From Candidatus Saccharibacteria bacterium RIFCSPHIGHO2_12_FULL_41_12 (GTDB taxonomy: Bacteria > Patescibacteriota > Saccharimonadia > Saccharimonadales > 2-12-FULL-41-12), in the NCBI GenBank assembly GCA_001790445.1, contig MGCQ01000007.1, positions 66,608 to 130,607 on the forward strand: 64,000 bases of DNA, read 5' to 3'. The notes beneath the pieces are model-generated. The model was not told where the DNA came from. It did no database searches and was given only the letters and a program-made list of their open reading frames with translations. Shown in pieces: positions 27,146-47,169 of the stretch; position 1 is the first letter of the stretch, and each line of letters starts with the position of its first letter. A program made the position numbers and the translations under genes.

Positions 27146-28117
27146 CTAACTGTCTGTAGGCTGGCCGTTGTTAAAGTCGAGCGTATTGTATGGTGCTTCC
27201 GAGCAAAGATCACTAATTATGTTTGGCTTACTTGGGTTCACTACAACTTTCCCTAGCGCCTTAATTTTGTTTGCATCGTTGCTAGGGAACATGCCAAACC
27301 AACAGGATGCAAACCACTCATGGGATTGATACTGATTGTGTATGCCAGCCCATTTACTATTTTTAGAAATTTCGTTTCGACTACGGTAGTCATATACGCC
27401 AAAGTCGAATCCAAAATTCTTGGTAGCAGGGAAGCCAATGGCAGTAGCTACTACATCGCCTGACTTGAACTTTGTACGAGCGAAGGGAAGATTTGGATCT
27501 GTGCGAGTGTCGTCTTTCTTTGGCTCTGGAGTCGTATCGGCGATTTTCTGAAATGCAGGAGCCAAGGTGTATAAATGATCAAAGCGAAAGGCAATACCAC
27601 AGTCAGTCTCAAAGGTCAGCAAGTACTGCAAAGTTGAGGGGTTACCCTCATAATACCTAGTCAAGCTGACAAGTGTTGCATCGATTGGCATTTTTACTTC
27701 CACTTTGCCGTCAGGGCTGTTGTCTATTCTAAAACCACCATGTGGTTTGTAATTATAACCACGGTAAGATCCGGGCATGAGCAAGCTGGTTACTTGAGCT
27801 ATATCAACAGGTGTTTGGTCAAAGATAAAAGGATTTTTGCATTTTGTGGGTTTGCCACTTTGGGTAAACCACTGGAGCTCCTTTTCGTTGAAGGCCCATT
27901 TTACGGGGTCGCTATTTTTAGATTCGGAAGACGTAGGTTGACTACTTTGAGATGATTTGTCTTTGCTTTTATACACATTGAACCCAGCAAAACCAACTCC
28001 TGCAACAACAGCAAGGACAATAATGATCAGAAAAAGATGAGCAAAGCCTGATTCATGTGTTTGTTTTTGACACATACAATAACTATATGAAAAGTCTATT
28101 ATAATTACAACACCCAT
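27146..28117 (-). CDS. membrane-anchored/secreted hypothetical protein (start possibly Met15 at 28075)
   Basis: N-terminal TM (LFLIIIVLAVVAGVGFAGF), a Ser-rich linker, and an unassigned C-domain of about 250 aa. Confidence 0.5.
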   Translation of the reverse strand: MGVVIIIDFSYSYCMCQKQTHESGFAHLFLIIIVLAVVAGVGFAGFNVYKSKDKSSQSSQPTSSESKNSDPVKWAFNEKELQWFTQSGKPTKCKNPFIFDQTPVDIAQVTSLLMPGSYRGYNYKPHGGFRIDNSPDGKVEVKMPIDATLVSLTRYYEGNPSTLQYLLTFETDCGIAFRFDHLYTLAPAFQKIADTTPEPKKDDTRTDPNLPFARTKFKSGDVVATAIGFPATKNFGFDFGVYDYRSRNEISKNSKWAGIHNQYQSHEWFASCWFGMFPSNDANKIKALGKVVVNPSKPNIISDLCSEAPYNTLDFNNGQPTDS

Positions 28118-28122
28118 ATTTT

Positions 28123-28140
28123 TGGCTGGGGATGAGGGAT
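28123..28140. repeat. distal copy of the tRNA-Gln 3'-end core (outermost att-like site)
   Basis: Exact 18-mer, followed directly by TAAAAGACGGATCTTTT. Confidence 0.8.
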
Positions 28141-28268
28141 TAAAAGACGGATCTTTTTTGTTCTTTTTATTTATTTTTGAATATTAGATCAAATTTGTGT
28201 ATAGCTTGGGTTACAGTAAAGTAAGGGGGTAGACAAAGACGTATATTTATAGTAGAATATTAATAATT

Positions 28269-28784
28269 ATGTTACGAATTGCACCGTTTGAGCAGTGTAT
28301 TGTATATGAGGAGGCCAACAGCTGCGCTTTTGCAAAACAATGTAAAGCCCCCAAAAAATGCGTAGGTATTAGTATTGTGGTCGACGAAGATCATTTTCAA
28401 ACTGCTAAATCACTAGGTCTGAAACCTGAGATAGATCGGCTAATTCATTTTACGGGTAGTGATCCCGAGACAAATGTTACTAAAATTTCTTTGTGCGAGC
28501 CAGCACTTACTGACCCAAGAATTGTTGGAGGAGTAAAGTTACTTATGGCAGAAGTTGATGCAGATGCATTTGTTGAACCTTCTGAGCTGCCTGCTCTGCG
28601 AGAAGTTGAAGCAGTATACAGTGGACATCTAACAGATATTGATCAAGTTGCTACTGATAAAGGTTTGCAGGCAGTAGAGTTTGTAACAGGCTCGACTAGC
28701 AGTAGTTTCTATCCAACAGGGGACAGGCTTGCTGAAGAGGGTGGAAGACTAGTATTAGTGCCTATCTACGATTTCGAAAGATAG
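28269..28784 (+). CDS. hypothetical protein (between att-like copies 1 and 2)
   Basis: 171-aa ORF. No motif recognised. Confidence 0.45.
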   Translation: MLRIAPFEQCIVYEEANSCAFAKQCKAPKKCVGISIVVDEDHFQTAKSLGLKPEIDRLIHFTGSDPETNVTKISLCEPALTDPRIVGGVKLLMAEVDADAFVEPSELPALREVEAVYSGHLTDIDQVATDKGLQAVEFVTGSTSSSFYPTGDRLAEEGGRLVLVPIYDFER

Positions 28785-28800
28785 TCATTGATATTGTACT

Positions 28801-28818
28801 TGGCTGGGGATGAGGGAT
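28801..28818. repeat. second copy of the tRNA-Gln 3'-end core
   Basis: Exact 18-mer TGGCTGGGGATGAGGGAT. Confidence 0.8.
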
Positions 28819-28972
28819 ATCGGCTAAAGCCTCCTCCCTGCGGTGCTCGGAAAATGTGAAAGTAAACTTTCCCGCCTTCCTGCGCTCCTCGTCCACCGAA
28901 CCCCTTTTGGCGGTTCGTACACCTTATTCTCAATCAGTTTTAATCTTAGAACTAAAGCCCTAACATTAAAAC

Positions 28973-28994
28973 TGGCTGGGGATGAGGGATTCGA
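28973..28994. repeat. third copy of the tRNA-Gln 3'-end core (22 nt identical to the tRNA copy)
   Basis: TGGCTGGGGATGAGGGATTCGA is identical to 38679-38700. Confidence 0.8.
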
Positions 28995-29157
28995 CCTACC
29001 TTTGGCAGGCCCGAAACTTCGCGATTGCCAAACCAGTTGGCATCGGAAGGTTTCCTTGCAGACTGCCGACTGGCAGTCCTCACCCCGATCTTTTTCGGGG
29101 GTCAAACCCATTTCTCAACAAGTATTTTCTAAAACCCAAATGGGTTATAAAAAATAC

Positions 29158-29178
29158 TGGCTGGGGCTAGTGGATGAG
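29158..29178. repeat. degenerate core-like copy
   Basis: TGGCTGGGGctagtggATGAG matches 9 + 5 nt of the core around a 7-nt interruption. Confidence 0.35.
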
Positions 29179-29631
29179 TTTCAGGAAGATTTTAGACAGG
29201 TAACAGAGGTAGTGCGTCAAATAACCGGCTCTATCTATGCGTGAACGTACCTACCCCCCACTACATTATTGAAGGGGGATATACCTACTGTAATTTGCAT
29301 ATTTAGCTTATTAATGTTCTCACGGTTTGCGTTAACCTACAGGGGTAGAAGCCCAAAACACTTGCTCTGTGCGTAAAAAATGTTTCTACCGGGGGGGTCT
29401 AGATATTTCCAAGCGGATCAGGGCGTTGTACATTGTCGAATAATGTGCGATGACCCTGCTTGGAAGTAGTGTGTCGTACAAGAACATGTGCGACATATAT
29501 TGGCTTAGTAAAATCTAAAATCTCTAACAAACAATTCACGTCTTATCAAACATACCCCTACCTTCTCTTTTGCTCTTCTGTGTTCTGTATTCGGTTCGCG
29601 CGCAAAAAATATTTGATTTGGCACTATAATT

Positions 29632-32600
29632 ATGGATGTTATGGCTAAGAAAACCACCGCAGTACCAAATGAGCCGAATGATGACCAGTCTTTACCGCAA
29701 AAAGTAAACCTGATACTTTTGCGTATCTTAAATGATGCCGCACCAGAGTTGGGGGATTATTACTTAGGGGCTCTACACACTCTCGCAAACACGTCTAACC
29801 CCGATAGAATTGCCCAGTCCGCACATAGTCTGCGTGAGCTGATACAGCAACTTCCAAGGCGACATAAAAAAGCCGCTACAAAAGTTACTCCACCCGGATT
29901 GCTTTCGGGAGCTTCGAATATTTATAAGACCCGTGATGTATGGAATTCGCTAACCATTGATGACTTCAACACCCCTACTGTTCGTCCTACGGACGTACAG
30001 GCGGAAACTAAGTATTACCGCGAATCAAAAAAGTTATGGGAGTTTATAAACAAATACTACCCTACGAACGAAGAAGAACGGCTGAGAATGGAGGCTGGGA
30101 TCAGGAAAGACACGCCCTTACCACCTAAGCTTCAAAAAATGAGGATGCAAGAATGGAGTAGGTATTACGCAAAGTTTGCAGATATTTCTCATCATGGCTC
30201 AACACCAACCGATGATTTTGACCAATTAGTAGAGTCATTTGAAGATTTTTTAATCAGAGAACTAGACCCACAAACAACAAAGGATTTTGCTGAAGTAGCG
30301 AAACTGATTAAAGAAATCGAGCAAGGTGACCAAAAGAACCTAGAGAAGTTGATGAAATTGGTGCGCTCAAATCGCCCAAACTACGACCACTTCTTCAACA
30401 ATATATCAGCTTCAGTATGGCTTGAAATTTTAGAAGCAAATAAGCTTTTAGATCATATAGACGAGCCTTACCCTGCGGAAGAAGGTGGATTCTATATTTT
30501 GCCGTGGGTTCCGGCAAATTACTATCAAAAAATAGCTAGAGAAAAACCTGATAAAATTATCAAGATATTAAAAGCTGTTATCGGCACCGAAAACGTCCGT
30601 GCTCAAGACCAGATACTTGAGATTGCGAAAGAGTTACCAAGCGATTCACTTGGGTTTATAGTCGCTCAACTTTCAAAATGGCTTAAGGGTAGATATGCGA
30701 ACCGTGGCCTAGTACCGTTTAGGGTTGGCGACCTTATTGTATATTTATGCGAGTCAGGTTATTTCGAACAGTCTATGATTGCATTCAAAGCACTCTTCGA
30801 GCTATTAGAACCTGAAGATAACGAAAGAAGTAAGTACTTCAGACATCCAGACACGCTAACATCGGACAGTTCTTACAAGACTTTGCTCCAACAAGTTCTG
30901 CCGAGTTTAATGAAAGTAAACCCAACAGAAACTGTTAAAGAGCTGTCCATTTTATTGAATGACGGGTTAACCATTGAACGAGAATCAGGCAAAGAAATAG
31001 ACGGAATTATTTATGACGGCTCTACTATTTGGCGACCTGATATTAAAACAAAACAGTACGATCATGAACCCTGCGATATATTGGTTACAGTTATTTATAA
31101 ATACGTGCATGAAATTGTCTCCTCCGAAGAAGAACTGGAGCAAATAGTCATTGAGCTTAGGAAATATAAATTTGAAGTATTCCACCGAATAGCTGCAACT
31201 TTGCTTGACGATGCTAAATCAGAAAAACTTAAAGCAATTAGAAAAGAGATAGTAGATAAAATTGGCGACCCAAGTAAGAAAGACTTTATCGTCAGGGAAT
31301 CAAATGTTATCCCTGCAATAACCGTTGATGATCTCAAAGAGCTCTCTGTTAAACAAATAATTGAAAAATTTAACAGCTGGGATCCAAAAGAGGAACTTCC
31401 TGGTTTTGGTAGGTCAAAATCTGATATTGGATTCGAGTTAAATAAATATCTGGCTGATAAGCCTGATGATGCTTTGACGTTTCTCAAAAGCGAGCTACCA
31501 ATTAACGATGAATACTTAAGCCATATATTTAGGGGCATTAGACAAGCTTCCGATAATAAGAAAATTAATATCAAATGGGAAGAGTTCATAAAATATGCCC
31601 AGAAATATATTTCATCCGCTAACGTAAGAAGCTCTACAGGTAATGAGCGTCAGAATCTCTTTGATCTTATTAATTCAATAGATTCTGGAATTAACCATGA
31701 TCACATAAAAATTCAAGATGTTAAAACTTTTGAAGATTTAGTTGCTATTTTCAGCTCATTAACAGATCACGTTGAACCGAGTTTAGAAGATGAAGATAAA
31801 TATACCAAGAGTTCTAGATCGGAAGCGGTTACTCTTGCGATAAACACCGTGAGAGGTGAAGCTGTCGGTGCGCTAATAGATATACTCAAAAATATATCTA
31901 GAAACAACAAGGAAGCATCCGCCATACCTAAAGAAAAGAAAGATGCGGTGTACGCAAAGCTTAAGGAAAAGCTGGACATAAAAAAAGAACCTACCCTAGC
32001 GGTTCGAACTGTATTTTCAAGAGAATTGCCGTTTTTAGCCTACGATAATCCAGAATGGGTAGCACAGAATCTTGAGCTGATTTTTCCACTCGATGAATCT
32101 AAGGCTAAGTATTTTGAAAATGCTATGGAAACATTCATAACGTTTACCAAAGTATTCCCCGAAGTATTTCCAGTCATTAACCCCTACTTAGTTGAATATA
32201 TGGATAGAATCAAAAAAGACGAAATTAAAAACCCGGATGAGAATACTGTCAATCATGTAGTGGGTCAAATCTTACTTATGCATATTGATAACTTTGTAGA
32301 TTTCGAAAATCCGGCAATGAAGAAGTTATTTGAAATGCCTGATGCCTTTCTTGAAGAAGTCATGGATTTCTTTGGTCGAGGTATCAAACAAACTGACGGC
32401 GACAGGCAAAAATTAATAATACATAAAGCTAAGAAATACTGGGAACAAAGACTAGCTAGTAAAAACGTTAAGGAATCTGAATATGCAAAGTTCGGCTGGT
32501 GGATGCGTGCTAATGCTACTGATGACTGGATAATTAAGCATTTTATCGATGCACTTTCTCATTCAGCTAAAATGGACGCATTATATTTTGTGGCAGACGA

Positions 32601-32835
32601 ATTGATTGTATTAGCAGAGACAGACCAAAGTAAAGCATCGAAAATATTTCTGGAAGTTGTTACAACTCAAGACAAAGACAACTTAAATCATATGCTCTAC
32701 ACGCCAGAGCTCTCGACGATGCTTAAAGAAATGCTTGCAAATGGAGGTACTGAAACTAAAAAAAATGCAACAAGGACTATCGATAAGCTTTGTGATATGG
32801 GCTATTACAATTATCAAGAACTGATCAGCTCTTGA
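29632..32835 (+). CDS. large hypothetical protein (1067 aa), predicted helical-repeat-like, no recognisable catalytic motif
   Basis: Uninterrupted 3.2-kb ORF, Lys/Glu/Leu-rich with amphipathic-helix character. I found no P-loop, nuclease or protease motif by eye. TATAAT at 29625-29630 lies 1 nt before the first ATG. Confidence 0.6.
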   Translation: MDVMAKKTTAVPNEPNDDQSLPQKVNLILLRILNDAAPELGDYYLGALHTLANTSNPDRIAQSAHSLRELIQQLPRRHKKAATKVTPPGLLSGASNIYKTRDVWNSLTIDDFNTPTVRPTDVQAETKYYRESKKLWEFINKYYPTNEEERLRMEAGIRKDTPLPPKLQKMRMQEWSRYYAKFADISHHGSTPTDDFDQLVESFEDFLIRELDPQTTKDFAEVAKLIKEIEQGDQKNLEKLMKLVRSNRPNYDHFFNNISASVWLEILEANKLLDHIDEPYPAEEGGFYILPWVPANYYQKIAREKPDKIIKILKAVIGTENVRAQDQILEIAKELPSDSLGFIVAQLSKWLKGRYANRGLVPFRVGDLIVYLCESGYFEQSMIAFKALFELLEPEDNERSKYFRHPDTLTSDSSYKTLLQQVLPSLMKVNPTETVKELSILLNDGLTIERESGKEIDGIIYDGSTIWRPDIKTKQYDHEPCDILVTVIYKYVHEIVSSEEELEQIVIELRKYKFEVFHRIAATLLDDAKSEKLKAIRKEIVDKIGDPSKKDFIVRESNVIPAITVDDLKELSVKQIIEKFNSWDPKEELPGFGRSKSDIGFELNKYLADKPDDALTFLKSELPINDEYLSHIFRGIRQASDNKKINIKWEEFIKYAQKYISSANVRSSTGNERQNLFDLINSIDSGINHDHIKIQDVKTFEDLVAIFSSLTDHVEPSLEDEDKYTKSSRSEAVTLAINTVRGEAVGALIDILKNISRNNKEASAIPKEKKDAVYAKLKEKLDIKKEPTLAVRTVFSRELPFLAYDNPEWVAQNLELIFPLDESKAKYFENAMETFITFTKVFPEVFPVINPYLVEYMDRIKKDEIKNPDENTVNHVVGQILLMHIDNFVDFENPAMKKLFEMPDAFLEEVMDFFGRGIKQTDGDRQKLIIHKAKKYWEQRLASKNVKESEYAKFGWWMRANATDDWIIKHFIDALSHSAKMDALYFVADELIVLAETDQSKASKIFLEVVTTQDKDNLNHMLYTPELSTMLKEMLANGGTETKKNATRTIDKLCDMGYYNYQELISS

Positions 32836-32860
32836 TTAAATATCCCTTAGGCTATACCAC

Positions 32861-33289
32861 TTATAAACTTGGTGGGGTTTGTGCTGCAACATCCGCAGAT
32901 ACTTCAGCTCTAAAAGCTTCAACCTGGTCGGCAAATTCATCGCCAAACGCACCTCGTGCGAGCTGAGTTGCCTGATAAACAGAAAACATTCGATACATTA
33001 CTGGAGGGTAATTAAGAACACTCGCAGGCATTGGTTCACCACCGAAACCGCTTACCCCTTTATTACAGTCATAGGCTAGAAGTTCAGTAGCCATAACAAA
33101 GCCCATAGGAACTACACCACCTTTAATACGGTCAGCCAAAAGAGTGGCTAAATCAACAGTAAGCCGATAGTCGCTCGTACCAAGTTCATCGCCCTCAGTA
33201 GCAACACGCTCTTGCAAGTGCGCCAAAAGCTGTTCGCCTGTTCCAACTAATCGATCTTCTTGTTCGCCACCGTTTAAATGTTCTGACAT
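32861..33289 (-). CDS. acidic hypothetical protein (142 aa), downstream partner of the 557-aa ORF
   Basis: Starts 22 nt after the stop of the 557-aa gene with AGGAGA upstream. No motif recognised. Confidence 0.5.
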   Translation of the reverse strand: MSEHLNGGEQEDRLVGTGEQLLAHLQERVATEGDELGTSDYRLTVDLATLLADRIKGGVVPMGFVMATELLAYDCNKGVSGFGGEPMPASVLNYPPVMYRMFSVYQATQLARGAFGDEFADQVEAFRAEVSADVAAQTPPSL

Positions 33290-33311
33290 ATTATCTCCTA
33301 TAAATTACTAA

Positions 33312-34985
33312 TTAAGCTGCACTTTGTTCTAGACGACTCATGTAAGTTCTAACAACAACGTCAGTTCTTTGAGTAGTAGCTTCATCAAATGGATCGCCAA
33401 CTGGTTCAACAACTATTCTGATTTTTGGTGTGTTTTTCTTACTATCGCTTGTACGTCTTACTTCTTTTGGTAGTGGACCCCAAACAGATGTACCATCATG
33501 ACCAAAGAAATTATCCAGATCAGCACTTGAGTCATAATCACGTCGTTCGGTTTCTAATATCACGCTTACGCCCGTAGCTTCGTCCTGCCATATTGCAGGT
33601 TGGCGACTACCATACTTACTGTATCGCTGATATTTTGCTTTTGGTGCATCGTCCTTATCACCTAAATAGTCTTCTAAGTAATCAGCAACGTCCTGTTCAC
33701 TCACAGGAATGCCTAATTTATCGCAAACTGCTTTTACATCTACAAAGAAGTAGCCATCGCGTTCGGTTTGGTTGACCGGAATCTCAATTGTAGCATTACG
33801 CAAACCACGCTTCATGCCTAGGGCACTAGCTAGTTGATCTTCAACTTGATCGCCTGCATAAGCAGCAGAAAGGGTTAATCCAACACCGTCTTTGGTAATT
33901 TCTACCTCGCCATTGGTTTTATGGAAGTGTCCAGCACCATCGTAGTCAAAACCAAAGTGGACGCTTTCACTGGTAGCTTTGGCTCTTTTCTTTTGTAGTT
34001 GGTTCCATTTGTCCTGAACCTTGCTAGTAATTCTATTACTAACGAACTCACGCATATCACCGCTACGAGCCGCTAACGAGAATAATGCTCCGCCTAGGCT
34101 GCCGTGTGCGTCTGCAAATGCTTTATCATTGTATTCAAGAGCGGTTTCGCCACCAGGCGTAGGGTAAGAACCGTCGCCATACATAACAAGTGCGTGCTCA
34201 AGTTGTTCAGGGTGAGCAAAGAGGATACCTTTTCTGTACTCCGAAACGTTAAAGTCGGTAATTTCCAGTTCTTTCGGGTCTAACTGCTCACGAGTTAAGG
34301 CAGAAATGCCATTCGGATTAGTCATAAGCCATTCTTCATAATTAGCCAAGTCAACAGTCATAGGTTCGCTGTCTTCACCTTGTACTTTCTGTGTACGAGT
34401 CATTTTGGCAGGAGTCTTACGACCTGCTTCATCTACTGTGTACTCAAAACGATCAGTTATTGTTGGCTCAATGTAGCCCCAAGTTAGGCGTTCTGTTAAA
34501 TAGCCTTCATTATCATAAGTAAGAAACTCTTGGTAGCGTGGGCGGTGTCTGTTGTACGAGTGTTCACCTTCAATAAGTTCAAACTTTACCATTCGTCCGT
34601 TAGCATCAAATTGATAGTTAATCCCGTCATAAAGTGGTGTGCTACCTTTAGCGTCAGTTTGTCCTTCATACGCACCAGTTGTGTATGTAAGACCTTCGCC
34701 ATCTTCCTTATAATGCCAAGGTAATCGACGTTTGTGTGGATTAGTAGCAAATATGTCGTGTATCTGGTTTTTTGTGGCTGGTTTGATAGGTTCTGAAAGA
34801 GCAGTAACGAGTTCAGGAAGAACTTCTGCCACAACTGCTTTGGTAGCCTCATCATGAAGCCTTAGAGGCCACATAGTATCACGAGGCATATTTATTTGAG
34901 GAAAGCGAGATTGAAGCGTAATAGCCTCGTCTACAAACTCACCGCCTTGAGGAAAACCTTCTGGATTTACACCTGATGTAGTCAT
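33312..34985 (-). CDS. hypothetical protein (557 aa) with a short YD-repeat-like segment
   Basis: Residues about 118-190 contain YQFDANGRMV, LTYDNEGYLTERL and FEYTVDEAGRKT, which resemble RHS/YD repeats. The rest is unassigned. No signal peptide. Confidence 0.5.
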   Translation of the reverse strand: MTTSGVNPEGFPQGGEFVDEAITLQSRFPQINMPRDTMWPLRLHDEATKAVVAEVLPELVTALSEPIKPATKNQIHDIFATNPHKRRLPWHYKEDGEGLTYTTGAYEGQTDAKGSTPLYDGINYQFDANGRMVKFELIEGEHSYNRHRPRYQEFLTYDNEGYLTERLTWGYIEPTITDRFEYTVDEAGRKTPAKMTRTQKVQGEDSEPMTVDLANYEEWLMTNPNGISALTREQLDPKELEITDFNVSEYRKGILFAHPEQLEHALVMYGDGSYPTPGGETALEYNDKAFADAHGSLGGALFSLAARSGDMREFVSNRITSKVQDKWNQLQKKRAKATSESVHFGFDYDGAGHFHKTNGEVEITKDGVGLTLSAAYAGDQVEDQLASALGMKRGLRNATIEIPVNQTERDGYFFVDVKAVCDKLGIPVSEQDVADYLEDYLGDKDDAPKAKYQRYSKYGSRQPAIWQDEATGVSVILETERRDYDSSADLDNFFGHDGTSVWGPLPKEVRRTSDSKKNTPKIRIVVEPVGDPFDEATTQRTDVVVRTYMSRLEQSAA

Positions 34986-35079
34986 AAGCGCATATAATAC
35001 TACAATATTAGATATTAGTCAATGATTTTTAGAAGTTATTTTTTGCGTTTAACAGTAGTCAAAAACGAAGTTCGGTTTT

Positions 35080-35271
35080 TTACTTCTGTTTTATATTCCT
35101 AACAGCAGCGATTGGGTCAAACTGTCCGCTTTGTACGGCGATTATATATTCGCGAGCAAGTCCACTAAGCTGGTCGATAAGTTCATCAACTTCCTCGTCT
35201 GTCATGTCTTTGGCTTCTTCGCCCATGATCTTACGAGCTTCTTCGACTGTAATTCTTGAATTAGAGTCCAT
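35080..35271 (-). CDS. small acidic hypothetical protein
   Basis: 63 aa. Overlaps the upstream DUF805-like gene by 11 nt. Confidence 0.35.
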   Translation of the reverse strand: MDSNSRITVEEARKIMGEEAKDMTDEEVDELIDQLSGLAREYIIAVQSGQFDPIAAVRNIKQK

Positions 35272-35668
35272 CGCTAAGAAAAGTTATAAATAAACCTGTT
35301 AGGTATGTCAGAAGAATAGCGATTACAACGATCAAGCCAATCCGCCATCCCTTAGCGCGAATGCCGAACATGTAGAATGCTTTGCTTGCATGTTCCGGCT
35401 TGCTAGGAGCAAAAAGGGCGTATGGCAGTAACAGGATTGTCGTCGGTGGAATTAACGCGAGTGTCCACCAACCGCTATGTCCGGTGTTTCGCAGTCGCCG
35501 AGCCGTCCAGATTATGATCGGAATAACGAGTATGAGGCTCAGTGGTTTTGCAAAGCCAGCAATAAACTCATCACTTCCGGCAACAGTATTGCAGAGCGCA
35601 AATGTTGGAAAAACAAACAGCATGGACGCTGTATATGATTTTGCATTCATGGTTGATACTTTTTTCAT
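35261..35668 (-). CDS. DUF805-like inner membrane protein
   Basis: ARRLRNTGHSGWW matches the DUF805 signature (RRLHD.G.SGWW). Three or four TM helices. AGGAGG SD. Confidence 0.6.
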   Translation of the reverse strand: MKKVSTMNAKSYTASMLFVFPTFALCNTVAGSDEFIAGFAKPLSLILVIPIIIWTARRLRNTGHSGWWTLALIPPTTILLLPYALFAPSKPEHASKAFYMFGIRAKGWRIGLIVVIAILLTYLTGLFITFLSDGL

Positions 35669-35915
35669 TCGGCCTCCTACTTGTTAAAAAGAGGCCAATT
35701 AAAAAAGGACAACCTCTCTAGATTGTCTAGACCAACACAGGTTGTAACCTATGCTTTCGAGAAGTTGCCCATTTTTGGTTACAACCAATCGAATATGATT
35801 GGGCTTTACAAGCCGTGTTGATCTAGACCCCTTAATCATATCAAGAAATGCTGTGAAAAAGGACTACTGTTATGAAATAACTGGACGAAAAACTATAATC
35901 ATTAACAGGTAAGTT

Positions 35916-36419
35916 ATGTCAAAACAGCATATATCTGATGAGGTGAAGATAGTTGAGATGCCGCAACAAGTGGCAGAAGCTCTACATGCTCAAATAATTG
36001 AAACAAAAAACATAGCTCTTGATTTAAAGAATCAGCTCGAGAAGATGCAAAACGATTTAAATACCGTAAAGAATATTGTCAAATCGACAAGTATTAGCAG
36101 GTCGGCATGGGTAAGGCTTAGGTATAATAAACGGCTTAGCGAGATAGTTGTTTCTGGGTATTATATTATGAAGTTCGAGAGTACCTTAGAGGGCGAACTA
36201 CTCCGTTACATGTTCACTAAGCGTGGCAAACCTTTAGATGACCGTTTTCAGTACTCCGAATTCATCAAGGAATTCAAGATAGCAGGCATAGAAAAATTAC
36301 ATAGTGCCAGAGCAATCAGTAAGATCGCATACAATTTAAGAGATCGATTCAGGAAAGAACTTGGGTACGATCAGCTACATGTTGACGCAAAAGAGTTCTA
36401 CTGGTTAAACGTACGCTAA
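35916..36419 (+). CDS. putative transcriptional regulator with C-terminal OmpR/CadC-like winged helix
   Basis: Coiled-coil N-terminus. The C-terminal pattern GELLRYMF..GKPL...ISKIAYNLRDRFRKEL...FYWLN resembles trans_reg_C wHTH domains. Confidence 0.45.
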   Translation: MSKQHISDEVKIVEMPQQVAEALHAQIIETKNIALDLKNQLEKMQNDLNTVKNIVKSTSISRSAWVRLRYNKRLSEIVVSGYYIMKFESTLEGELLRYMFTKRGKPLDDRFQYSEFIKEFKIAGIEKLHSARAISKIAYNLRDRFRKELGYDQLHVDAKEFYWLNVR

Positions 36420-36565
36420 CAGATGTAATTCTTGTCTGTATCTAATTCAGACAATGCTTTTGCTTTAATGCGTTTATGCAGGACAAGCCAAGTCAATTAA
36501 GCAAGTCAGAACTAGAGGCACTAGTTCAATTTTCCTGCTACTTGCAGAAATTGAAAGGTATGTAG

Positions 36566-37105
36566 ATGACATCTAGAAAATCAAATCAAACTAAAGGATT
36601 GCGACCAATGCAGCTCCGCTTTTTTAGTATGTTAGGAATGGAGAAGCCGAAGCCGATCCCGCCACAGCTAGCCCTAATATATGGATTTCCCCTAGCAGGG
36701 ATTATTTCTCAGCTACTATTTTGGTGGGGTTTAGAAAAAAGAGATGACGGGTTCATCTTCAAGACTGAAAAGGATTTTATATCAGAGCTCGGCATCACAT
36801 CAGCTCAGCAAAGGTTAGCAATAAAAAAAGGTAAAAAGCATGGTTTCCTTACTGTTAAGAGAATGGGCGTACCAGCAAAGAGGCATTACAAAATAGATTT
36901 TGATCTATTGGTCAAAACTACAATAAAAGAGGCTGCTGAAAAGAAAGTCACTTTGTCTATTAGCCATTACAATAACCGCGAAAAGGCCATGTCGCCTAAC
37001 GGTCAAAATAGCAGAACTACTACAGAAAGCACTCCAGAAAGCACGACTAGAAAAGGAAGTACTTTATCCACAGCCGACATAATAGCTAAGAAAATGGTAG
37101 AATGA
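36566..37105 (+). CDS. hypothetical protein, possible wHTH/replication-organiser-like
   Basis: FKTEKDFISELGITSAQQRLAIKKGKKHGFL looks like an HTH. Ser/Thr-rich tail. Assignment is weak. Confidence 0.4.
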   Translation: MTSRKSNQTKGLRPMQLRFFSMLGMEKPKPIPPQLALIYGFPLAGIISQLLFWWGLEKRDDGFIFKTEKDFISELGITSAQQRLAIKKGKKHGFLTVKRMGVPAKRHYKIDFDLLVKTTIKEAAEKKVTLSISHYNNREKAMSPNGQNSRTTTESTPESTTRKGSTLSTADIIAKKMVE

Positions 37106-37241
37106 AAAAGCTTTTCCGGTTTAAAACTATATCGCAGCGATTTTTTATTTCTGCTCTTAATGGGCGGTTGTGTTCAGAAAGACGCTGCAAAGTTGTTGGA
37201 CTGGAAAAGCCACAACCGTCCATTTTTAGTTAAGGAGTTTC

Positions 37242-38765
37242 ATGAAGGCAATAATATTGGCGAGAGTATCGACCAAAGACCAAGAGGATAACAACTCTAT
37301 ACCATCTCAAACACGCCGTCTTCATGAGTACGCTGAAAAGTTCGAACTTATTGTTCTCGAGACTTATCAACTCGTAGAATCCTCGACTAAAGCAAACCGC
37401 CGAAAGTTTAACGAGCTTATTAATCGAATAAGAGAATCTGATGAGAAAATAGCACTTATCGTAGATACGATTGATCGCTTGCAAAGAGATTTTCGCGAGT
37501 CGGTCATGTTAAATGAGCTACGACTTGAGGGCAAAATTGAGCTTCACTTTGTAAGAGAGAATCTGATTATCAATCAGGTATCGAACAGTGCGGATATTCT
37601 CCGTTGGGATATGGGGGTAATGTTTGCAAAAAGCTATGTAACCCAGCTAAGTGATAACGTCCGCCGTAGTTTTGAGCAAAAGCTGAAGAATGGCGAGTGG
37701 CTGGGAAGAGCACCGTTTGGCTATAGTAACGAAGACACGCCCGAGGGTAAAAAATCGATTGTGCCTGAACCAACACAGGCAAAGATAGTGGGAAGCATGT
37801 ACCAATGGTACGCAACTAGCTCATATTCTATGAAAGAGATTCGCAAGAAACTTATTGAAGATTACGGTCTAATCAAGTCTGTTAGCAATATAGATAAGAT
37901 CTTAAAGAATCCCTTTTACTATGGCGAGATGAAAATAAAGAATGAGTTGTACCCTCATAAGTACGAGCCTGTAATTACCCGAGGTATCTTCGATCAAGTC
38001 CAAGCTGTAAAAATCGGATTCAACAAGAAAGCTTTTAAGTATGCTGGAATCCCTTATTACTATCGAGGCCTAATGCAATGCGGCGATTGTGCTTGCAGTA
38101 TTACGCCAGAAAAGAGCAAAGGGCATACTTATTATCATTGTACGCAGTATAAGGGCAAGCACGGGGCTGCATATTTGCGAGAGGAAGACCTAACCGAGCA
38201 GTTGATGGTTGCTTTTGAGGCTATCAAGCTAACACCAGAACAATATGATGAAGTAACGACAGTTCTAAAAACCGTACATAAGGATAAGGTTAAATACAAA
38301 GCCCAGCATGTGGGGCATTTGCAAACAGAGCTAACGAAGTATCAGCAACGCCTTGAGAAATTATATGAATCGCACCTTGATAATGATATAGACCCAGAAT
38401 TCTATAAACGAAAGGCTATTGAATACAGGTCTACTCGTGATGCTATCAAGACAAAGCTAGATGCCACCGATAGAGCCGATGACGATTTCTATTTTGCAGT
38501 TGATGGGCTAATTCGAATGGCTCAAAGAGCACCTGAATTACTGGCACGTTCTGAAATGGAGCATAGGAGACGGCTTATTAACTTGGTACTTCAGAACCTT
38601 ACGGTCAAAGACAGAGAACTTCGGTGGGAGTACAGAAAACCGTTCGATACATTGTACCGAACGGCTAAAACTTCAAATTGGCTGGGGATGAGGGATTCGA
38701 ACCCCCGATGGCGGAACCAGAATCCGCTGCCTTACCACTTGGCCAATCCCCATCGACAAGAGTAA
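37242..38765 (+). CDS. large serine recombinase (integrase); the integrated form has its 3' end extended through the antisense of the tRNA
   Basis: Resolvase catalytic N-terminus AIILARVSTKDQ, a recombinase domain, a Cys-rich zinc ribbon (CGDCACS...YYHCTQY), and a coiled-coil region. The last 29 codons are antisense of tRNA-Gln. Confidence 0.9.
   Translation: MKAIILARVSTKDQEDNNSIPSQTRRLHEYAEKFELIVLETYQLVESSTKANRRKFNELINRIRESDEKIALIVDTIDRLQRDFRESVMLNELRLEGKIELHFVRENLIINQVSNSADILRWDMGVMFAKSYVTQLSDNVRRSFEQKLKNGEWLGRAPFGYSNEDTPEGKKSIVPEPTQAKIVGSMYQWYATSSYSMKEIRKKLIEDYGLIKSVSNIDKILKNPFYYGEMKIKNELYPHKYEPVITRGIFDQVQAVKIGFNKKAFKYAGIPYYYRGLMQCGDCACSITPEKSKGHTYYHCTQYKGKHGAAYLREEDLTEQLMVAFEAIKLTPEQYDEVTTVLKTVHKDKVKYKAQHVGHLQTELTKYQQRLEKLYESHLDNDIDPEFYKRKAIEYRSTRDAIKTKLDATDRADDDFYFAVDGLIRMAQRAPELLARSEMEHRRRLINLVLQNLTVKDRELRWEYRKPFDTLYRTAKTSNWLGMRDSNPRWRNQNPLPYHLANPHRQE
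38679..38752 (-). tRNA. tRNA-Gln (anticodon CUG), CCA encoded
   Basis: Hand-folded minus-strand sequence: TGGGGAT TG GCCAAGTGGTAAGGC A GCGGA TTCTGGT TCCGC CATC GGGGG TTCGAAT CCCTC ATCCCCA G CCA. It has a 7-bp acceptor with U1-A72 (typical of bacterial tRNA-Gln) and a TTCGAAT T-loop. Confidence 0.9.
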
Positions 38766-38812: not shown

Positions 38813-38951
38813 AAAGTATCAAGAGTGTAGAGAGGGATCTAGCCCGACGACCTACCAGCAACCCTTTCAGTTGGGTGCTAAATCTAGTCCTGCATGCAGG
38901 AAAGATATGAAGAACTCAAATCCTTTCTTGCAAACCCAGGAGGAAGGATAT
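38813..38951 (+). promoter_or_regulatory. SAM-I (S-box) riboswitch with SD-sequestering hairpin, controlling metK
   Basis: UAUCAAGAG...GAGGGA...GCCCGACGA...GCAACC...GGUGCUAAAUC...AAAGAUA matches the SAM-I core. ATCCTTTCTT (38920-38929) can pair with GAGGAAGGAT (38940-38949), covering the metK SD. Confidence 0.85.
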
Positions 38952-38955
38952 TTTT

Positions 38956-40065
38956 ATGCCAACAATAACAAAGAAAACCAGCGAATCTGTCTGTGCGGGG
39001 CACCCAGACAAGATCGCTGACCAAATCAGCGACGCCATAGTCGACGAGGTGCTTAAGCGTGACCCAAATGGTCGCACAGCCGTGGAGACTCTAGTTGCCA
39101 GAGACAGAGTAGTCCTAGCGGGGGAGGTCAATACAACTGCAAAGGTAGATTTTGTATCCGTAGCACGTGAGCAGATCAAAAGACTTGGTTACACAGATCC
39201 ATCGTGGGGCTTCTCTGATGAATCTGTAATAGATAATCATATCCACGCTCAATCACCAGAAATATCCGTCGGTGTCGATGATTTCGGAGCAGGCGATCAA
39301 GGCATAATCTACGGCTACGCTACTAACGAGACAGACAAATATTTGCCCACGCCGATAGCCATTGCCCACGACTTGACCAGAGCTATAGACACCGCCCGCG
39401 AATCTGGTGTAATGCCACATCTACGGCCAGACGGCAAAGCGCAGGTAGTGATCAAATATATTGATAACAAACCATCCAAAGTAGATCACGTGACTGTCGC
39501 CGTGCCACACGATCCGCGTCTGTCACTGGCCAAAATCCAAGAAGATTTACTCAAGCATGTGATTACACCAATCTTGGGGAAGTATGGTTTTAACGTGCCA
39601 AAAAACGGGTTAGTGGTCAATGGCACAGGTGTCTGGCATACCCCTGGCCCTAAAAGTGATGCGGGGCTGACCGGTCGCAAGATTGTGGTTGATGGCTATG
39701 GGGGATTAGCCCATGTTGGCGGTGGAGCCTTTAGTGGCAAAGACCCCAGCAAAGTCGACAGATCAGCAGCCTATGGTGCGCGTTATATTGCCAAAAACAT
39801 CGTTGCCAAAGGGCTGGCGGACGAAGTGGAGATAGGGCTGTCGTATTTTATCGGAGCCAAAGAGCCAGTGCAATTTTCTATTGATACATTTGGCACTAAC
39901 AAAGTTCCAACCGACAAAATCCGCGCATTTGCAGTCAAATTACTCAATCCATCAGTTAAAAACATCGTTGAAACCCTAGATCTCAAAAGACCAATTTATT
40001 TGCAAACCGCCTCCTACGGCCACTTTGGTAGAGAAGAATTTCCTTGGGAAGTAATAAAAAAATAG
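38956..40065 (+). CDS. metK: S-adenosylmethionine synthetase
   Basis: GHPDKIADQISDAI, GAGDQGI and GGGAFSGKDPSKVDRSAAY signatures. Confidence 0.97.
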   Translation: MPTITKKTSESVCAGHPDKIADQISDAIVDEVLKRDPNGRTAVETLVARDRVVLAGEVNTTAKVDFVSVAREQIKRLGYTDPSWGFSDESVIDNHIHAQSPEISVGVDDFGAGDQGIIYGYATNETDKYLPTPIAIAHDLTRAIDTARESGVMPHLRPDGKAQVVIKYIDNKPSKVDHVTVAVPHDPRLSLAKIQEDLLKHVITPILGKYGFNVPKNGLVVNGTGVWHTPGPKSDAGLTGRKIVVDGYGGLAHVGGGAFSGKDPSKVDRSAAYGARYIAKNIVAKGLADEVEIGLSYFIGAKEPVQFSIDTFGTNKVPTDKIRAFAVKLLNPSVKNIVETLDLKRPIYLQTASYGHFGREEFPWEVIKK

Positions 40066-42039: not shown

Positions 42040-42050
42040 CCATCACAACG

Positions 42051-42204
42051 CCTTGTCCTGCTTTCTGGCATAGCCAGAAACTCTGACAAGTCTCTTGGCA
42101 TAGAATAACTTTTTCTTCTGCGGTATTCACCTACACGGTACCATATGTACGGCTTGCTCCATTCCTCAAAGAGAAAAGTTATTCTATACTCAAGTGTGAA
42201 GGTT
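42051..42204 (+). repeat. about 150-bp structured intergenic repeat, copy 1 (after the helicase gene)
   Basis: Mostly identical to 47018-47169 outside a divergent centre, by manual alignment. Internal hairpins are TTCTGGC/GCCAGAA and a stem of about 20 bp (catagaataacttttt / aaaagttattctat). Confidence 0.8.
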
Positions 42205-46999: not shown

Positions 47000-47017
47000 C
47001 CCAAAATCTCCACACCA

Positions 47018-47169
47018 CCTTGCCTGACTTCTGGCAGAGCCAGAAACTCTGACAAGGCTCTTGGCATACAATAACTTTTTCTTCTGCGGTATTCACTTCA
47101 CCGTATTGTAGATACGGCTTGCTCCATTCCTCAAAGAGAAAAGCTATTCTATGCTCAAGTGTGAAGGTT
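47018..47169 (+). repeat. about 150-bp structured intergenic repeat, copy 2 (after typA)
   Basis: See 42051-42204. Same orientation, and it begins 19 nt after the typA stop. Confidence 0.8.

Follow-up and report, generated by a model that had tools for sequence, protein, structure and literature searches.

Layout of the tRNA-Gln locus

The segment treated here, positions 28819-29631 of the window (the whole stretch of Candidatus Saccharibacteria DNA that was analysed, 64 kb in length), lies at the left margin of an array anchored on a glutamine tRNA gene, tRNA-Gln(CTG), beside which a large serine recombinase is encoded. In an earlier note the segment had been described as dense in hairpins, poor in protein and a possible source of structured RNAs encoded by a genomic island. 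It consists of four parts: module B, module D, an attachment-site-like (att-like) sequence, and a 440-bp island-internal spacer that holds element E. Modules B and D belong to two conserved structured families, which are absent from Rfam and recur at tRNA-Gln hotspots of Saccharibacteria. The array is made up of the following features.

28123-28141, minus strand: copy 1 of the tRNA-Gln 3' end, the outermost displaced fragment (19 nt identical to the gene)
28142-28800, plus strand: module A, a single-gene module between copies 1 and 2
28801-28945, minus strand: module B, of the B-type structured family
28972-29127, minus strand: module D, of the D1-type structured family
29157-29189, no strand: att-like site with a conserved 32 bp (CTGGCTGGGGCTAGTGGATGAGTTTCAGGAAGA), the distal end of the present island
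37242-38765, plus strand: large serine recombinase gene (507 aa; Pfam Resolvase, Recombinase and Zn_ribbon_recom)
38679-38752, minus strand: intact tRNA-Gln(CTG) gene, the anchor of the array (ARAGORN; Rfam, 61 bits)

The tRNA-Gln gene is the sole tRNA gene in the window. Its final 17 nt (plus-strand reading GGCTGGGGATGAGGGAT, the gene's own copy being at 38680) are repeated exactly at 28124, 28802, and 28974, against a chance expectation of 0.07 matches. The serine recombinase has its nearest relatives in other Candidatus Saccharibacteria genomes (identity up to 67%), and its remote matches to XisF and to CcrA/CcrB/CcrC all fall below the cut-off. Its reading frame overlaps the tRNA-Gln gene, which it enters antisense. 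The marks of an Islander-type tDNA island are thus found at this locus: an intact tRNA gene at one island end, an integrase beside it (a serine instead of a tyrosine recombinase), and exact displaced tRNA fragments of 18-22 nt for modules A, B, and D.

The recombinase frame passes through the tRNA as ...NWLGMRDSNPRW... (38676-38765), and on an excised circle it would run on as ...NWLGLVDEFQEDF... across the att-like site (29157-29244). The differences among the att-like sites of loci L001-L004 (fetched comparison loci and contigs are designated Lnnn) look partly third-position-like (GAT/GAC, GAA/GAC/GAG).

A fourth copy of the tRNA 3' end, at 29157-29175, is imperfect, with 74% identity to tRNA-Gln over 19 nt. 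The same sequence (TGGCTGGGGCTAGTGGATGAGTTTCAGGAAGA) is also found at the distal ends of related islands in L001, L002, L003, and L004. The 32-bp site ends a related island in L168 as well, where the island sequence onward from the site (29155-29258) is conserved. The present island therefore extends from about 29157 to 38696, that is, over some 9.5 kb from the att-like site to tRNA-Gln, and the seemingly degenerate fourth copy is, as judged from these comparisons, its real distal (left) end. As the island starts at about 29157, the part of the segment to the left of the att-like site lies outside it. The idea of element-encoded structured RNAs has to be divided accordingly: RNAs remain plausible for B and D, whose stems are kept by compensatory changes, but both modules stand outside the present island, and the only island-internal candidate is a weaker element at about 29405-29612 that is conserved in just two other contigs.

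Modules B and D as structured non-coding units

All seven stems listed in the earlier note are present when the sequence is read directly, and the segment is locally GC-richer than its surroundings (0.52 at 28800-29099 versus about 0.40-0.43). The 381-nt core at 28800-29180 folds with z = -7.42 on the minus strand and z = -6.84 on the plus strand relative to dinucleotide shuffles, and none of 100 shuffles folds as well. A tiling control of 88 non-overlapping 381-nt tiles over window positions 1-33500 gave a mean z of -0.43 (standard deviation 1.33); the target region recomputed in this control reached z = -6.9, and the most extreme tile of all, 28957-29337 (z = -4.68), overlaps the segment. 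To the right, at 29196-29631, folding is less pronounced and depends on the strand (z = -3.1 plus, -0.9 minus).

The three overlapping open reading frames (ORFs) are present as listed (28843-29244 plus, 28824-29111 minus, and 28982-29170 plus), and none of them has a Pfam match. Neither the 6 D homologues nor the 12 B homologues share a frame that is open throughout. The D homologues in L001 and L112 carry stops in all six frames, and alignments of homologous units show indels of 1 and 2 nt. The segment is thus non-coding, as had been proposed: neither a protein match nor a reading frame kept across homologues was found, and no conserved protein family speaks for any of the overlapping ORFs. 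The suggested search with Rfam and Infernal returned no family for the segment. With the Rfam 15 covariance models, an E-value search produced only sub-threshold miRNA and sRNA noise in 28000-29750, the homologous units in 9 other loci had no match, and at gathering thresholds the whole window yielded only tRNAs and a SAM riboswitch. The second suggested check, covariation in homologues, had a positive outcome, as the stems are maintained through compensatory changes in other genomes. The elements of the two modules, both read in the tRNA sense, are given below.

28897-28917 (approximate), minus strand: module B hairpin H1
28845-28876 (approximate), minus strand: module B hairpin H2
28812-28838 (approximate), minus strand: module B hairpin H3, with GGAGG/CCUCC around a GCUUUAGC mini-hairpin
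29103-29109 with 28987-28993, minus strand: module D closing stem P1
29083-29101, 29061-29078, 29014-29053, and 28995-29009, minus strand: module D hairpins
28973-28985, minus strand: module D 3' tail

In module D, four hairpins are enclosed by a closing stem. The T-loop part of a tRNA copy (28973-28994, 22 nt identical to the tRNA-Gln 3' end) supplies the 3' strand of this stem, and the fold leaves a 13-nt tail identical to the end of tRNA-Gln. The window's D scores 134.7 bits against covariance model R1 (E = 2e-37). Across six distinct sequences, RNAalifold gives -56.5 kcal/mol for the tRNA-sense strand versus -45.3 kcal/mol for the antisense strand, and 96.8% of cells are paired on the sense strand. 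Seventeen of the 47 base pairs are changed on both sides, compared with 0-1 in slid controls, and none of 500 shuffles reaches the observed value. On the sense strand, G.U pairs outnumber A.C pairs by 24 to 5, and one G.U midway along a helix is invariant; owing to this asymmetry, the structure is assigned to the tRNA-sense (minus) strand. A D-type unit occupies the identical position in L001, between that locus's own tRNA-Gln 3' copy and the att-like site of its island.

Module B scores 65.5 bits against covariance model R2 (E = 9e-19), and its 3' end (28801-28818) is an exact 18-nt copy of the tRNA-Gln 3' end, with identity ending in the T-loop. The first homologue of B was found in L003, in a like array. 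In a script run on the covariance-model alignment of 12 sequences, 88.9% of cells are paired, 14 of the 35 pairs are compensatory (3-9 in slid controls), and G.U pairs number 23 versus 12 A.C pairs; the unpaired motif UAGCG is conserved. As judged from the substitution patterns of both families, selection for base pairing acts on a single-stranded fold in the tRNA sense, for which RNA would be the simplest reading. A B-type core also lies inside a tRNA-Leu-like partial copy (L004, 18250-18560), 32 nt downstream of tRNA-Leu(CAG), with terminators of its own on both sides.

Two further identities were considered for D and rejected. A hammerhead-like reading of CGAUGA...GUGAAC fails in that these bases are paired in the consensus structure. 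An identity as transfer-messenger RNA (tmRNA), suggested by ends that resemble GGGAUUCGAC (5') and CCAGCUC (3'), has no ARAGORN or Rfam match, and the unit is too short and has no tag frame; the resemblance arises because the sequence is the reverse complement of a T-arm.

No promoter was found for B or D by the promoter scan on either strand. Inside 28819-29631, its one promoter-like match is weak (9/12, minus strand, 29294-29265), and in total the scan gave as many matches as are expected from shuffles. A scan of 28100-29800 revealed no terminator-like site, while the equivalent positions in other loci hold canonical bidirectional terminators. Two AT-rich hairpins stand in such positions.

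28934-28974, no strand: AT-rich 14/15-bp hairpin abutting copy 3 (inverted repeat and folding), standing where other loci have a trailer and a bidirectional intrinsic terminator
29116-29163, no strand: long AT-rich hairpin between module D and the att-like site (inverted repeat, in trailer/terminator position)

tRNA-derived boundaries, the 32-bp site, and its arrays

The copies that bound the modules were compared with the tRNA-Gln gene of the same locus. Eleven distinct cases, drawn from 7 loci, show a unit that starts with a copy exactly matching the resident tRNA-Gln over 18-22 nt, with identity ending in the T-loop. The sequence of tRNA-Gln varies among these loci, and the copies therefore track the resident gene. 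Beyond the D core lies a second tRNA-derived piece, corresponding to the variable loop and the 5' strand of the T-stem (e.g., AGCAUUCGGGGG). With tRNA-derived pieces on both sides of the core, the unit looks like a partial tRNA-Gln copy whose T-loop has been interrupted. B and D can both be described in this way, as a copy reaching from the variable loop to the 3' end with a structured core of about 75-115 nt held in the T-loop. The core is unlikely to have been an intron: that reading was rejected on the grounds that the flanking "exons" are degenerate, lack the anticodon arm, and could not yield a working tRNA.

The D core occupies two different positions within tRNA-Gln copies. Besides the T-loop type, cores of subtype D2 are located upstream of tRNA-Gln, fused to a 23-nt copy of the tRNA 5' end that keeps a promoter-like TACAAT box. 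Such displaced first 23 nt of the tRNA with the TAGTGTACAAT promoter-like box were noted in L169 (10440-10575, minus), L001 (6539-6634), and L156 (1358-1413); at these fusions the working tRNA-Gln uses a second promoter (TATAAT).

The att-like site was surveyed more widely. One metagenome scan with a degenerate form of the site returned 89 stretches, and the fetched loci, all from public contigs, contain 172 sites at up to 4 mismatches (153 of them distinct). Conservation is confined to a block of about 32 bp (-6 to +25), with near-zero information in the flanks. Two to six sites are carried by 62 of the 95 site-bearing locus-strands, at a median spacing of 636 bp. The intervals in L003 hold single small ORFs in tRNA orientation and one B unit, and the same cassette start is found behind different left neighbours in different contigs. 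In loci L087-L175 (e.g., L003 4470-6000, L090, L091, L103, L148, and L160), two to six site copies follow each other at a few hundred bp, mostly with single small genes between them, each typically after a bidirectional terminator and a short aagcataagcatc-like trailer. This layout is integron-like in appearance, yet it is paired with a serine recombinase.

Module A is the single-gene unit of the window. It contains one ORF of 171 aa (28269-28784) and a promoter-like site at 28230-28258; the ORF matches no Pfam or NCBIfam family, and no DNA homologue of the module is present in any fetched locus. As for cis-mobilizable elements and accretion arrays, the expected att-flanked units without recombinase or transfer genes are thus at hand, A with one family-less ORF and B and D without a conserved ORF.

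Distribution of the two families

Profile and covariance-model searches recovered about 18 B-type and about 15 D-type units, the latter in two subtypes plus hybrids, and all of them in Saccharibacteria-like contigs with tRNA-Gln or an att-like site. The window itself holds one of each and no further copy in the remainder of its 64 kb. In 75 more distant integrase loci (1.19 Mb), no match to the D-type model R1 and a single marginal match to the B-type model R2 (20 bits) were obtained, and viral contigs scanned for the B motif and the att-like site gave no match. A dispersed miniature repeat, like miniature inverted-repeat transposable elements or repetitive extragenic palindromes, was rejected as an identity, as B and D are confined to tRNA-Gln or att loci and none are scattered.

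Several units stand directly beside an intact tRNA-Gln with only a terminator between and no island, namely B types in L092 and L147 and D types in L156, L133, L164, and L140. More than one unit per locus is common, and the copy number is variable (L112, L156, and L164). Literature searches did not turn up a published description of these families or of the cassette-like arrays.

Interpretation and alternatives

On balance, we favour the view that the segment is the composite left margin of a tRNA-Gln integration hotspot and that B and D are probably non-coding modules of a site-specific accretion array. The architecture, the family membership, the selection on pairing in the tRNA sense, and the confinement to tRNA-Gln or att loci are its established part. 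In leftward order from tRNA-Gln, read in the tRNA sense, the locus would comprise the 9.5-kb island, its 32-bp terminal site, and then the presumably older, integrase-less modules D, B, and A. Such modules may accumulate and reshuffle by site-specific recombination at sites resembling the tRNA 3' end, the serine recombinase mobilizing or at least reshuffling the units. Each module would regenerate the landing site, a role for which the tRNA-3' copies are candidates. The cores might be transcribed in the direction of the tRNA, through read-through or under expression signals captured from it; a hint of such expression is that D-type cores upstream of tRNA-Gln follow a displaced tRNA promoter and the first 23 tRNA nt. 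The core RNA would then serve the module or the array instead of being debris.

The position of the crossover bears on this mechanism. A crossover in the T-loop, the other candidate point being TTGGCT|GGGG, is favoured by the junctions located there and by the way in which the 32-bp block is centred, while 32 of the 153 sites lack the TTGGCT that usually precedes GGGG, which argues against it.

Several findings weigh against the accretion of non-coding RNA modules. The distal site of the island has non-host sequence to the left of the T-loop junction, contrary to a T-loop crossover, and no empty-site, excision, or circular-junction contig was recovered. The downstream units are preceded (in the tRNA sense) by a terminator-like hairpin, with no conserved promoter between. 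Few sequences are aligned, and some of the covariation distinguishes no more than two sequence groups; the B of the window is itself divergent within its family (65 bits versus 100-150 bits in others). Moreover, the loci were gathered by searching for the att-like site, so that the adjacency of B and D to this site is biased.

Independent assemblies of the same genome end within or beside the array (at 29020, 29266-29269, and 38685 in contigs L082-L084 and L086); these breaks could reflect strain heterogeneity at the hotspot, but k-mer arithmetic did not fit simple excision.

A more far-reaching version is possible but doubtful. Here, Saccharibacteria would possess an integron-like serine-recombinase system in which single-gene and non-coding cassettes are assembled at tRNA-Gln via the 32-bp site. 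B and D would be new miniature mobile RNA modules, inserted in tRNA-Gln copies (in the T-loop or after about nt 23-26) and expressed via the captured promoter or terminator of the displaced tRNA. Within such a system, the B or D RNA might help to control recombination, for example through a free 3' tail complementary to the end of the integrase mRNA.

It is unlikely, in our estimate, that B and D are ordinary host small-RNA genes, that is, tRNA-Gln paralogues turned into stable tRNA-like RNAs with a cellular role and passively displaced by islands. The units found directly downstream of an intact tRNA-Gln in the same orientation in several contigs would suit such genes, as would the selection on the tRNA-sense strand and the tRNA derivation of both the 5' and the 3' segments. 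However, host genes should not be missing from some tRNA-Gln loci (L137 has none within its contig) or often be present in two copies at a locus in variable number (L112, L156, and L164). Nor does their paralogy explain a D core at two positions in tRNA-Gln copies and a B core in a tRNA-Leu-like copy, and a conserved promoter was not seen.

The earlier note had also considered the decayed ends of earlier elements, and this suggestion stands insofar as the units are bounded by displaced tRNA-Gln 3' copies, as successive integrations predict. That the units are inert debris of this kind, with stems left over from terminators or from protein-binding inverted repeats, nevertheless appears improbable. 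Displaced tRNA fragments at the unit boundaries and hairpins adjoining each copy in terminator positions are what debris would leave, and cis-mobilizable remnants of this sort are known (PMC5704250, PMC3146451). Debris would hardly retain the same length and architecture in at least 12 B and at least 6 D units of different lineages, though, or keep 17 (D) and 14 (B) base pairs via double substitutions with a strand-specific asymmetry of G.U over A.C. The internal hairpins also lack T-runs, and the terminator scan of the region was empty.

We give little credence to a function as folded single-stranded DNA, be it an attC-like recombination substrate or a single-strand origin used after excision. 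Strand-specific pairing that tolerates G.T fits folded single-stranded DNA equally well and in this respect speaks against RNA modules. The units also lie within an array of recombination sites and have no obvious promoter, and the conserved UAGCG of the B type recalls the CS-6 motif of ssoA origins, a weak resemblance over 5 nt. By contrast, a serine recombinase, an enzyme type that works on duplex DNA, is the only recombinase present, and Pfam and NCBIfam searches of the island revealed neither a tyrosine nor an HUH enzyme. Conserved unpaired blocks combined with variable helices are, in addition, the usual pattern of RNA.

There is virtually no case for a real small protein encoded by any of the three overlapping ORFs: the ORFs exist and the plus-strand frame that would continue the integrase frame is open to 29168, but besides lacking a Pfam match the 133-aa ORF spans B, a tRNA copy, D, and the att-like site, the homologues have stops in most or all frames and indels of 1-2 nt, and the substitutions are compensatory for pairing, not synonymous.

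Comparison with known systems

The closest parallel to the proposed accretion array is found in the ssrA islands of Dehalococcoides, which form tandem arrays with a serine recombinase (DsiB) ORF overlapping attL and an insertion point inferred to lie in the T-loop (McMurdie et al. 2011, PMC3146451). Their integrase-less tandem units have been interpreted as cis-mobilizable elements (PMC3146451). As in those islands, a tRNA-like gene is followed by tandem units, every one of them delimited by a copy of about 20 bp of the gene's 3' end, and a large, CcrB-related serine recombinase has an ORF that crosses attL into the target gene; the overlap with attL and the repeat boundary in the T-loop are both found here. 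Unlike in Dehalococcoides, the target is tRNA-Gln and not ssrA, no tmRNA being found in the window. The units are far smaller (see the median spacing of 636 bp), many have a single gene and two kinds have none, whereas structured non-coding modules were not described for the Dehalococcoides islands. A six-gene integration module or a second small recombinase is not evident here either.

Cis-mobilizable elements (CIMEs) and accretion at tRNA or other att sites, of the ICESt1/ICESt3 type, have been reviewed previously (PMC5704250). The present array resembles CIMEs and the composite staphylococcal cassette chromosome (SCC) islands, which use Ccr serine recombinases, in that att-flanked segments without an integrase stand in tandem with an integrase-bearing element, and in that repeated integration-site sequences mark the limits of the units. 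CIMEs and pseudo-SCC elements, however, are gene-carrying deletion derivatives on the kb scale, while B and D measure 150-190 bp and show a constant architecture with RNA-like covariation. The tycheposons of Prochlorococcus, a bacterium with a streamlined genome, are reported to be small integrative elements and remnants that line up in tandem at tRNA genes together with partial tRNA copies (bioRxiv 10.1101/2020.12.28.424599). The tandem accumulation at a tRNA gene that leaves partial tRNA copies is shared with them, whereas the host phylum and the element families differ. Neither arrays of a 32-bp site nor structured non-coding modules are known to us from tycheposons.

Integron cassette arrays are likewise built mostly of single-gene units with one short conserved recombination site between them, and here, too, the same cassette recurs behind different neighbours. 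In contrast to integrons, no IntI tyrosine recombinase is present, the only recombinase being of the resolvase family. The site is a conserved 32-bp sequence resembling the tRNA 3' end instead of an attC hairpin defined by structure, and the array is anchored on a tRNA gene. Finally, B and D share with tmRNA and with YrlA (a bacterial Y-RNA-like RNA) the combination of tRNA-derived terminal segments with extra helices. They differ from both in having no ARAGORN or Rfam match and an interrupted T-arm, the 5' strand of which is sequestered in another hairpin, and from tmRNA in having neither an alanine-type acceptor stem nor a tag reading frame.

Right-hand part of the segment and neighbouring features

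To the right of the att-like site, within the island, the following features were distinguished.

29196-29404, plus strand: island-internal spacer with the CCCCC/GGGGG and GGTAGAA/TTCTACC stems
29405-29612, plus strand: element E, a candidate island small RNA or regulatory region
29625-29643, plus strand: TATAAT box followed by the probable start of the large island gene at 29641

The conservation of the spacer ends at about 29258 in L168 and restarts at about 29352 in L177, and no homologues of 29196-29400 were found. Element E is conserved in L168 and L177 only. It stands directly after an att-like site in L168, and in L177 it precedes a homologue of the large island gene with 73% identity. 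Its hairpins at 29406-29465 and 29472-29495 show compensatory changes and a conserved plus-strand U.G, and they are followed by a CU-rich block (29552-29596) and a UUUUGC...GCAAAA stem. Element E could be a small RNA or an operator region, which is put forward as a lead because only three sequences are available. For an operator, a repressor might lie among the small helix-turn-helix-like proteins of the island. The related island of L177 that carries the same large gene and element E abuts, at 2340-2420, a displaced 3' fragment of a different tRNA (TGGTGCTCAGCTCTAAGGGAATTGAAC); that island end shares with the window only the element-side motif AACAGAGGTA.

The large island gene probably has its true start at 29641, which would leave its mRNA nearly leaderless. 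The protein (29641-32835, 1064 aa) has homologues that are also 1064 aa long, and its only database match, below the threshold, is to a pPIWI-associated nuclease N-terminal domain. Its homologues (loci L176-L179, 48-79% identical) adjoin HEPN, Zeta-toxin, and type I restriction genes, which suggests that the gene is defence-related cargo. Besides the recombinase, the ORFs of the island have only sub-threshold Pfam matches (KorB, DUF5343, and pP_pnuc_1) and no NCBIfam match.

On the outer side of the array, the start codon of a 323-aa chromosomal gene lies about 6 nt past copy 1. On the far side of tRNA-Gln, a SAM (S-box) riboswitch (49 bits, 38813-38911, plus strand) is located just upstream of metK (38956-40065). 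A sequence of about 160 bp is present downstream of metK in two copies, 42044-42204 and 47011-47169, which are 89% identical, 5 kb apart, and situated at or near gene boundaries.

Significance

Genomes in the Candidate Phyla Radiation are tiny, and little is understood of how these bacteria exchange genes. The locus described here is a recurrent, tRNA-anchored hotspot served by a serine recombinase, at which very small modules pile up. If they are RNAs, B and D would be new tRNA-derived RNA families tied to mobile DNA, and if they are mobile, they would be the smallest integrative units described at a tRNA gene. The two covariance models and the one site consensus provide concrete, testable sequences for the study of genome plasticity in Saccharibacteria.

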